Positions 22,815-24,776 of a DNA stretch of 32,000 bases are shown here, one piece after another. Origin of the DNA: Candidatus Babelota bacterium (GTDB taxonomy: Bacteria > Babelota > Babeliae > Babelales > Vermiphilaceae). The DNA lies in assembly GCA_039809905.1 (NCBI GenBank), contig JBDHVY010000001.1, positions 1,050,001 to 1,082,000 of the forward strand, in the 5' to 3' direction. Under the pieces are notes generated by a model. It had not been told where the DNA came from and did no database searches. It worked only from the letters and a program-made list of their open reading frames with translations. Numbering within the stretch: position 1 is the stretch's first letter; each line of letters begins with the position of its first letter. The position numbers and the translations under genes were made by a program.

Positions 22815-24776
22815 ATGAAAATTATACGAGGTGCTTGCTTATTGTTGTTTAATTCTCTTTTTTTGATTGCTATGGATGCTCCAAAGCAACAATTAACAAC
22901 TCCTCTTTCTGCAGATGCATTGGTGAAAGTTGTCGTTGAAGGTAAGGAATCAGAACCGCTAGAACTGCAATGGCAGCAGGTAAAGTTGAGTGGATTAGGA
23001 AAAATGGTAGAGGATTTAGAATATAATACAAGTTTGCCTTTTCCTTTGCCTGCTGGTGTACCTCTTAATACTGCACAAATGATTTTTACTATGTTAAAGC
23101 CATATGCTGAAAGTTCATTGACAAATGAGGAGGACAGATTAAAAGAAAATCTTGATCCGCAATTAAAAAAATTATCTTTGAGTCAACTTGTTGAGATAGC
23201 TAATGGAGCAAATCTATTATCTGTTAATAAACCAATCTTGGAGCGTATTGGAGCTCGATGTACTAAGTTGATTACTACAGCACCTCATTTAAAAATTTCT
23301 GATTATGATGCAATAGATTCTATAAATACAGATTTTTTTAAAGTGGAGCTACCTATTAAACCAGAACCTATTATGGCCGATATTAAAGAACTATTCCTTA
23401 AAAAACAATTGAATTATGGAAAAAGAACAGAGTTTGATATTGGATTTGATCCTGTAATGGGACATTTTTATGAAGATAGTTCCATTGCTTTCGCAGGAAT
23501 GGTTGATAGAAAGACTTTTCAGCTAAGTATTTATAATGATAAAGGAAAAATGAGTTCACAAGAGTATTCTACTGAAGAAGCTGCTCTATGTGCGGCATTA
23601 ACAAAAGATGTTATGGCAATCCAACTGTATGATAATCAAGTCATTATAAAACAACGTTCAGGTGAAAAAAAAGCATGTCGCCTGAAATTTATTGATACTC
23701 GGTTGCGCAGATTAATCTTCAGTCCTAGCGGTAAATATTTAATATCTTTTGACCTTAATGATAAAGTGTATCTATGCGATATAGATTCTATTGATTGGTC
23801 AAAAGATTCAAACCTAAAAGCCACTAAAATAGGTGTAATCGATATGAAGTCAAAATTAGATCATATCGATGCAATTTTTTTTACTTCCGATACGGATATT
23901 TTAATAGCTGGCACACAAAAAATGGATTCTAAATTGTTGCGATGCATCACATCTATAGGAGAACCCTTAAGATTGGTTATGAGAGAGGCAGTCGTTATAC
24001 ATACGGCTTTGCATGAAGCTAGAGAGATTGTTTTTAGTGATGATGGAAAATATCTTTTAGATTGTTATTGGAATCCATATGGATTGAATCCTTCGTATGT
24101 GATGGTTGTGTATGATATTGAGAACAACAAAGCAGGAAAGGAATTTACAATTGAAGGGTTTGAAAAGCATTATATTATTTCAATGTGTTTCAATAGAGAT
24201 AATAGTTTAATAGCCTGTGGTGGTGATATCAAAGATGGTATAATTAAGATATATGATGTAGCAACAGGAGCTTTAGTGCATTCTTTTTCAGGATTAGCTC
24301 TAAATAAGATGATGCAATTTAGTTCTAAAGATAGAAAGATGATGAGTGTTAATGGTAAAAAATTTGCTGTATGGGATGTTTTCACTAAAGATTATTTTTC
24401 AGCAATCAAGAATATTGAAGGATATGATTATGATCGGAACAAAAGAAAATTAACTTTTTTATATCGCTTTTTATCGTTCTTAAAAAATAAAAAGAAGATG
24501 GATCTTGAAGAAGGCGATTTACAGCAATTCAATTTACTGCATGATAATGTAAAATCATTATTAAATTACATTAAGGAACCATCCCAGGAGACAAAACCAT
24601 CGTATTCCTATCAATCGGCATGGCAAGAAAGATGGCAACAGTTTCAGAGCAAATATCTTAATACTCCCGGCAGAAAAGCAATGATTTTCTATGGGGCTTT
24701 GGTTACTAGTGCTTCTGCCATAGGTTATGCACTATATAAATACCTGACATCTACGTCTGCGACTGCAAAAGATTAG
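22815..24776 (+). CDS. Skp1/POZ-like + WD40 beta-propeller protein with N-terminal leader and C-terminal TM anchor
   Basis: Leader [20 protein letters not shown]. The Skp1-like block (22923-23273) is [25 protein letters not shown]...[29 protein letters not shown]. WD40-like units include [32 protein letters not shown] and [27 protein letters not shown]. C-terminal TM is [20 protein letters not shown]. Alternative starts are 22800 and TTG 22737. Confidence 0.7.
   Translation: [653 protein letters not shown]

Follow-up and report, generated by a model that had tools for sequence, protein, structure and literature searches.

The gene at positions 22815-24776 (+) of a 32,000-nucleotide stretch of DNA from a Candidatus Babelota bacterium (contig JBDHVY010000001.1, positions 1,050,001 to 1,082,000; this whole stretch is referred to as the window) encodes a protein in which a module resembling eukaryotic Skp1 is fused to a WD40 beta-propeller behind a putative export leader. 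The resemblance to Skp1 is best read as real homology, visible only at the level of the protein family. We tentatively propose that the protein is an exported effector, which would dock on the host cullin Cul1 and use its own propeller as the substrate receptor, i.e., a one-piece, F-box-independent adaptor and receptor; this may well be correct, while falling somewhat short of what we would call probable. The architecture had been noticed in a first-pass annotation made from the sequence alone, which interpreted it as a possible mimic of Skp1-cullin-F-box (SCF) or other cullin ligases: the observation was confirmed, and the interpretation was partly supported. The open reading frame (ORF) itself was recovered at exactly these positions, and its features are as follows, each with its identity to P0002, the one full-length relative (49% identity) returned by a word-indexed search.

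22815..24776, +: whole coding sequence, 653 residues, ATG at 22815 and stop at 24776 (from the ORF list).
22815..22871, +: putative Sec-type leader, residues 1-19, MKIIR followed by 14 hydrophobic residues, with an inferred cleavage between LIA and MD (hydropathy, n-h-c layout and conservation; 77%).
22923..23282, +: Skp1-like POZ module, residues 37-156, the counterpart of Skp1 from strand 1 to helix H6 (family profile against the PDB, hhalign, and Pfam on homologs; 71%).
23283..23480, +: predicted helical linker, residues 157-222, in place of Skp1 H7-H8 (three low-confidence helices by AlphaFold2 (AF2); 43%).
23481..24374, +: WD40 beta-propeller, residues ~223-520, six clear blades and a low-confidence seventh (Pfam, phmmer against the PDB, AF2 and Foldseek; 38%).
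24375..24668, +: C-terminal helical region, residues 521-618, of no known family (low-confidence AF2 helices; 52%).
24678..24737, +: moderately hydrophobic segment, residues 622-641, followed by a 12-residue tail, a possible tail anchor (KD19, the most hydrophobic 19-residue window on the Kyte-Doolittle scale, 1.52; tail 74%).

Significant similarity to Skp1 was detected in two distant homologs, P0025 and L083, which individually exceeded the gathering score of Pfam Skp1_POZ: 23.5 and 24.1 bits, respectively, versus 21.9 (E about 5e-5). The N-terminal domain of the window protein was in turn related to those of P0025 and L083 by BLASTP (E-values of 2e-14 and 5e-12), 173-189 residues aligning collinearly at 29% identity. 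When the N-termini of five family members were combined into a profile (A3; shallow, with an effective number of sequences (Neff) of ~2) and compared with all PDB sequences, 24 matches were obtained at E<=10, and 23 of these were Skp1. The best E-values were 3.2e-5 for yeast Skp1, 9.9e-5 for that of Dictyostelium, about 3e-3 for human and about 1e-2 for ASK1 from Arabidopsis, and the sole match other than Skp1 was a ribosomal protein (E 0.34). These alignments covered Skp1 from strand 1 (residue ~10) to where H6 ends (residue ~134). Using hhalign, A3 also matched a small Skp1 alignment (parts of which were copied from the output of the PDB profile search) with 95.5% probability and an E-value of 1.5e-8, residues 41-155 of the window protein corresponding to residues 7-129 of human Skp1. 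The alignment was collinear over ~115 residues and contained MxEDLG, P-x-P and AANYL-type motifs, the last of which, located in H5 of Skp1, reads GANLL in this family.

The affinity of the N-terminal domain is specifically toward Skp1, and not toward BTB domains in general or Elongin C, because an Elongin C control gave a probability of only 0.3% by hhalign, and the PDB matches of A3 included no chain of a BTB, KCTD or Elongin C protein. In Pfam, BTB (PF00651) was not listed for any member at E<=10.

The similarity to Skp1 stopped at a defined point. Every Skp1 alignment of the family ended at the end of H6 (Skp1 residue ~130), and the next ~65 residues were predicted to be helical. Skp1 H7-H8 aligned with the region after H6 at a probability of only 0.6% (hhalign), and the Pfam Skp1 C-terminal domain (PF01466) had no match in any member at E<=10. 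An N-x-D-F motif following H6 was considered as an equivalent of the 'KNDFT' of Skp1 (H7-H8), and was rejected on the same hhalign value. A cryptic F-box in the connector was also rejected, a signal of the F-box hidden Markov model (HMM) being absent there. As Schulman et al. reportedly found in 2000, and Zheng et al. in 2002, the POZ part of Skp1 binds Cul1, and H5-H8 clamp the F-box. Since the POZ part and H5-H6 align to Skp1 and H7-H8 were not detected, the module appears to keep the cullin-facing half of Skp1, and the part completing the F-box site appears to have been lost or replaced. We do not regard the window protein as a strict member of the Skp1 family because H7-H8, which define that family, were sought and not found.

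The assignment of WD40 blades by the first-pass annotation held at the levels of both sequence and predicted structure, and we regard the propeller call as confirmed. Pfam scores exceeded the cutoffs for WD40 (PF00400; 28.2 bits versus 27) and ANAPC4_WD40 (PF12894; 32.6 bits versus 22.9), and a phmmer search of the PDB with the window protein gave PkwA as the best sequence match (5e-12), followed by WDR61 (about 2e-9), with FBXW7 among the weak WD40 matches. In the AF2 model, 26 beta-strands were arranged in blades (residues 224-517), with a predicted local distance difference test score (pLDDT) of about 70 over most of the propeller (residues 224-490); Foldseek matched this model to WDR61, THOC3, mLST8 and WDR5 (E 7.5e-11 and a template-modeling score of 0.67 to WDR61). 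Nothing in Pfam was matched by residues 496-653. The C-terminal segment (residues 622-641) is rich in G/A/S/T, and its KD19 is borderline, slightly under the value of ~1.6 customarily required of a transmembrane helix. It was found in the subfamily of the window protein and P0002 and in the ortholog on metagenome contig L001, and was absent from P0025. Therefore, of the C-terminal transmembrane anchor that had been annotated, a hydrophobic segment conserved within a subfamily remains, and a subfamily-specific tail anchor is plausible.

The secretion leader was likewise borne out. It is the most hydrophobic stretch of the protein (KD19 1.76 at residues 1-22) and, as judged by inspection, has a basic n-region, a hydrophobic h-region and a small residue at -1. 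A leader with an (L/I)-x-A junction followed by M was seen in every family member: P0002, a third paralog, L083 and P0025. In the case of P0025, the leader, MIKKYIIAALLMFGAGYIGA followed by MD, became apparent once the start was moved to an upstream ATG. The window gene also has a second in-frame ATG at 22800, 15 nucleotides upstream, which would add MELYN and is kept in the paralogs. A lipoprotein signal was rejected: there is no lipobox, and Cys8 is preceded by R-G-A. Dependentiae, the group to which we assign the host of the gene (see below), possess Sec and type II secretion, and their WD40 and F-box proteins, noted along with ankyrin proteins, are thought to be host-targeting (PMC4776705). 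In this group, signal peptides were reported on 44% of coding sequences and on 78% of ankyrin candidate effectors, and outer-membrane vesicles were observed (PMC6561590); candidate effectors typically carry signal peptides, with WD40 and F-box proteins noted among the gene products (PMC6561590, PMC4776705).

Export-type leaders were also present on four ORFs of the window to which no function was assigned: 14415-15050 (+), 9424-10119 (+), 10147-10566 (+) and 1909-3342 (+). Among the leader-bearing ORFs of the window, one leader ends in NSASA followed by MK, two adjacent small ORFs share the start MMKKQM(I/F)F, and one of 477 residues showed a weak match to the glucosidase II beta-like domain PRKCSH_1 (E 0.005).

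The family proved to be small. An exhaustive HMMER/phmmer search with residues 30-200 against 1.84 billion representative proteins yielded four matches: the query, P0002, P0025 (E 5e-5) and P0024. The last of these was rejected as a family member, being a 3715-residue, repetitive, low-complexity, Ser/Pro-rich and eukaryotic-looking protein that reached an E-value of 1e-12 via ten short repeats. Two more loci, L082 and L083, came from a scan of metagenomes, and both P0025 and L083 share the architecture of the window protein (leader, N-terminal domain and WD40). No relatives were returned by word-indexed searches with the alignment of the N-terminal domain or with the N-terminus of P0025, by a profile scan of genome contigs with alignment A1, or by a scan of IMG/VR viral contigs; a local HMM search of the six-frame translations of the window and all 85 loci gave no further copies. 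L001, the contig of P0002, carries at least three tandem paralogs (3-821, 823-2826 and 2959-3384), whereas the genome of the window has one copy. Relative to P0002 (L001 823-2826), the synonymous divergence (dS) rose from about 0.3 over the leader and the Skp1-like part (22815-23354) to about 1.4 over the propeller (23481-24374), and the 5' ends of all paralogs were nearly identical in DNA; this suggests gene conversion, or swapping of propellers or modules, among paralogs. We describe the family as small and paralogous, with a constant leader and Skp1-like module and with the propeller as its fastest-diverging part.

No ortholog was found at the syntenic site in eight related Dependentiae genomes (tblastn). 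The slot between a conserved 135-residue ORF and rpsT (window 21508-24872) was variable among related Dependentiae (L003 5470-7758 and L006 5420-7833): that of L006 held unrelated genes, and that of L003 a leader-bearing 551-residue protein whose ankyrin repeats are accompanied by a RING finger at the C-terminus (zf-C3HC4_3, E 1e-4), so that this lineage places ubiquitin-pathway mimics in the slot. An adaptor that stays constant beside a variable receptor, tandem birth-and-death, and a variable slot that is also used for another ubiquitin-pathway mimic are hallmarks that have been described for the effector families of amoeba-associated chlamydiae (PMC4209131).

A gene for a TPR-like protein without a leader (216 residues, 21998-22648 (-)) is divergent from the target gene at a distance of 166 bp. 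Its counterpart is ~95% conserved beside the homologous gene in L082, where a copy with a P0002-like N-terminus (1309-2081) directly follows it, and it is not found beside the distant homologs (L083 and L084).

We consider 22815-24776 to be a real gene under selection. The identical protein was found on a 1,228,744-bp NCBI contig and, with the same flanks, in an independent Logan assembly. The ratio of nonsynonymous to synonymous substitution (dN/dS) versus the partial ortholog in L001 was 0.26, indicating purifying selection, and the G+C content was 33%, the same as that of the surroundings. The upstream neighbors are an XerC-like integrase/recombinase, a penicillin-binding protein transpeptidase (pbp), the 135-residue ORF, which has a hydrophobic N-terminus, and the divergent TPR protein; those downstream are rpsT, rpmB, ftsH, tolB, a TonB-like protein, a 154-residue ORF and a protein of the MotA/ExbB/TolQ family. 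Since the FtsH of the window was 82-90% identical to that of metagenome-assembled genomes of candidate division TM6, Babeliales and Dependentiae (1.2-1.5 Mb chromosomes), the host of the gene is a bacterium of the Dependentiae (TM6/Babeliales), obligate intracellular in lifestyle; to our knowledge, all cultured Dependentiae are obligate intracellular parasites of protists. Eukaryotic contamination was ruled out: pbp, rpsT, rpmB, ftsH and tolB flank the gene in two independent assemblies, and its G+C content equals that of its neighbors. Elsewhere in the window (15965-18682 (+)), a 905-residue protein combines a hydrophobic region at the N-terminus with a sigma-54 interaction (AAA+) domain located around residues 610-770, an unusually long enhancer-binding-type ATPase for a 1.2-Mb genome.

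In the mechanism that we tentatively favor, the protein would be exported via Sec and would then leave the cell either through type II secretion or with outer-membrane vesicles, inside them or on their surface. Its Skp1-like module would dock on a host cullin at the N-terminal domain of the latter; Cul1 is the most likely partner, because the POZ part of Skp1 is established to bind it. Following the logic of BTB-type Cul3 adaptors, the protein's own propeller would replace the substrate-binding domain of an F-box protein and would deliver the host proteins bound to it to the Cul1-Rbx1-E2 machinery of the host for ubiquitination; in the subfamily of the window protein, the C-terminal hydrophobic tail may additionally tether the protein to a membrane. 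If the module binds Cul1, pathogens could do entirely without the F-box step, Dependentiae, experimentally almost uncharacterized, would gain a concrete mechanism of host manipulation, and the Skp1 core with its swappable propeller would be a compact natural scaffold of interest for engineered protein degraders. If it does not, the gene would still be a clear case of the capture and re-use of a eukaryotic domain by a bacterium. A more elaborate scenario, which we consider doubtful as a whole, is that a Dependentiae lineage captured a protist Skp1, added a Sec leader, dropped the F-box-binding helices and fused interchangeable WD40 propellers, yielding an F-box-independent mini-SCF receptor on host Cul1 that is tail-anchored on the host or vacuolar membrane, and the first prokaryotic Skp1 homologue. 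Tail anchoring would then focus ubiquitination at the parasite-host interface, and the array of paralogs, in which the adaptor stays the same while propellers are swapped or evolve fast, would amount to a natural library of modules for targeted degradation.

Several results weigh against docking on Cul1 by an exported Skp1-like protein. The N-terminal 242 residues of the window protein matched no Pfam family at E<=10, Skp1_POZ (PF03931) included, and BLASTP of the N-terminus versus human SKP1 gave an E-value of 0.18 in a different register, no better than chance. A profile of the close subfamily retrieved no Skp1 from the PDB, and reached a probability of only 12% against Skp1 by hhalign, in the same register as the family profile; alignment A2 versus a single SKP1 sequence gave 20%. 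The link of the window protein to Skp1 is thus to be regarded as transitive, via distant family members, because these carry a significant Skp1 signal, while the protein and the profile of its own subfamily do not. The parallel drawn by eye in the first-pass annotation (residues 37-153) accordingly failed pairwise and stood, in the same register, for the family. Among the Cul1 contacts on H5 of Skp1, N108 is kept, and Y109, F101 and I104 are replaced by L, V and A, respectively. Structure prediction gave a pLDDT of about 25 for the N-terminal domain in the full-length AF2 model (4 alignment rows). A domain-only model (3 alignment rows) had a mean pLDDT of 59.9, with 65-87 in the helices corresponding to Skp1 H3-H6 and less than 40 in the beta-sheet part; the order of the predicted helices matched that in Skp1, which is weak evidence. 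Foldseek of the N-terminal domain model versus the PDB gave nothing significant, SKP1 being at rank 8 (E 2.2). Furthermore, a Sec leader combined with a C-terminal hydrophobic segment could equally indicate an inner-membrane-anchored periplasmic protein that never reaches the host cytosol.

Alternatively, the module may bind F-box proteins instead of, or besides, a cullin, and act as a Skp1 decoy or scaffold: it would sequester host F-box receptors, dampening SCF, or pair with leader-bearing F-box-like proteins of the bacterium itself, the propeller and tail localizing the complex. H5-H6, a part of the F-box-binding core of Skp1, lie inside the conserved region, F-box proteins are known in Dependentiae (PMC4776705), and an ORF ~6 kb from the target (30707-31723 (-)) bears a leader (IIAVLLFNIIPSCA followed by MI) that resembles that of the target. 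The first-pass annotation had called this neighbor an F-box protein; its scores for F-box-like (20.5 bits versus 24.3) and F-box (18.2 versus 20.5), over residues 46-82, were below the Pfam thresholds, and it had neither a PDB sequence match nor any other recognizable domain. The two genes are not in the same operon, with rpsT, rpmB, ftsH, tolB and the genes for the TonB-like and MotA/ExbB-family proteins lying between them, and we take the ORF as context rather than as part of a demonstrable system. Moreover, the H7-H8 needed to complete the F-box site were not detectable, and the Pfam Skp1 C-terminal domain found no match in any member. We consider this alternative unlikely.

An envelope protein with no link to ubiquitin is, in our judgment, similarly improbable. 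In this case, the protein would be periplasmic and anchored in the inner membrane, its propeller serving as a BamB/TolB-type scaffold, with the Skp1-derived module co-opted for interaction or oligomerization. Bitopic periplasmic proteins classically combine a signal peptide with a hydrophobic stretch at the C-terminus, no secretion signal besides Sec was evident, and there are bacterial WD40 proteins whose functions do not involve a host, the best PDB sequence match being PkwA. However, Skp1 is established as eukaryote-specific, and bacteria lack its partners (cullins and F-box proteins). With its few members, patchy distribution, tandem expansion and rapidly evolving propeller, the family looks like one of effectors and not of housekeeping proteins; the content of the syntenic slot varies, the relative L003 having the ankyrin-RING protein there, and P0025 has no hydrophobic tail.

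A convergent or artefactual resemblance to Skp1, the N-terminal domain being an unrelated helical domain on a propeller, is very unlikely: although the window protein alone matched no Skp1, its AF2 N-terminal domain was of low confidence with no significant fold match, and the family alignment is shallow (5 sequences), two independent members exceeded a curated Pfam threshold, the PDB-wide profile retrieved Skp1 from four eukaryotes with one unrelated match, ~115 residues were collinear with the shared motifs and with predicted helices in the Skp1 order, and the Elongin C control was negative.

Returning to the proposed one-chain adaptor and receptor for Cul1, one of its closest known counterparts is eukaryotic Skp1 (PF03931 Skp1_POZ plus PF01466 Skp1), with which it shares a homologous strand 1 to H6 (about 115 residues). 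However, eukaryotic Skp1 is a stand-alone protein of ~160 residues, whereas the window protein is bacterial, carries a Sec leader and a WD40 fusion, and has no detectable H7-H8. The layer of host cullin-RING ligases that intracellular bacteria and giant viruses are known to copy is that of the receptor, in the form of F-box, U-box/RING and BTB domains; we know of no bacterial copy of the Skp1 adaptor layer described to date. A full-text literature search revealed no report of a bacterial Skp1 homologue, its coverage being incomplete, so that this is absence of evidence.

The first-pass annotation had considered a direct fusion of POZ and receptor to be unusual, which needs correction: it is the rule for Cul3 BTB adaptors, and is known in amoeba-associated chlamydiae (PMC4209131) and in mimiviruses and poxviruses (PMC6484134). 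BTB/POZ adaptors of Cul3 resemble the window protein in having an N-terminal POZ domain and a C-terminal substrate-binding repeat in one chain, a likeness of design only and not of family. Domman et al. (2014; PMC4209131) described a BTB-leucine-rich repeat (LRR) family (PEX1) of Parachlamydiaceae together with F-box families of amoeba-associated chlamydiae, and, as of that year, BTB domains in bacteria had been reported from only one bacterial family. The BTB-LRR proteins also belong to protist-infecting obligate intracellular bacteria, join an N-terminal POZ fold to C-terminal repeats, and show tandem duplication, birth-and-death and a presumed hijacking of host cullin-RING ligases (PMC4209131). 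They differ in having a BTB-type POZ (the Cul3 logic), LRRs and type III secretion signals, whereas the window protein, from a different phylum, has a Skp1-type module, WD40 and a Sec leader.

Mimiviruses encode BTB/POZ-WD-repeat paralogs, as named in UniProt. Together with vaccinia A55, a BTB-Kelch protein shown to bind Cul3 (PMC6484134), they are likewise direct fusions of POZ with a beta-propeller receptor, and belong to parasites of amoebae or of animal cells. These proteins are viral, BTB-type and cytoplasmic, and, unlike the window protein, lack a leader.

Bacterial F-box effectors, such as AnkB/LegU1 of Legionella, GALA of Ralstonia and VirF of Agrobacterium (PMC2790608, PMC1781473), also subvert the host SCF via a eukaryote-derived module with a repeat domain, and AnkB is membrane-anchored on the vacuole. 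They mimic the receptor and need host Skp1, whereas it is the Skp1 layer that the window protein resembles, with a receptor domain supplied in the same chain. In eukaryotes, F-box/WD40 receptors (beta-TrCP and Fbw7/Cdc4) assemble with Skp1 into the same succession of Skp1 POZ, helical connector and WD40 propeller that the single chain here would reproduce; there, two polypeptides are joined by the F-box, whereas the connector of the window protein has no detectable F-box. A POZ domain and a repeat receptor in one chain are already known from eukaryotic BTB adaptors, the BTB-LRR proteins of Protochlamydia and the BTB proteins of mimiviruses and poxviruses; the novelty here is that a bacterium encodes a Skp1-type module, that this module is fused to WD40 and preceded by a Sec leader, and that H7-H8 appear to have been lost.

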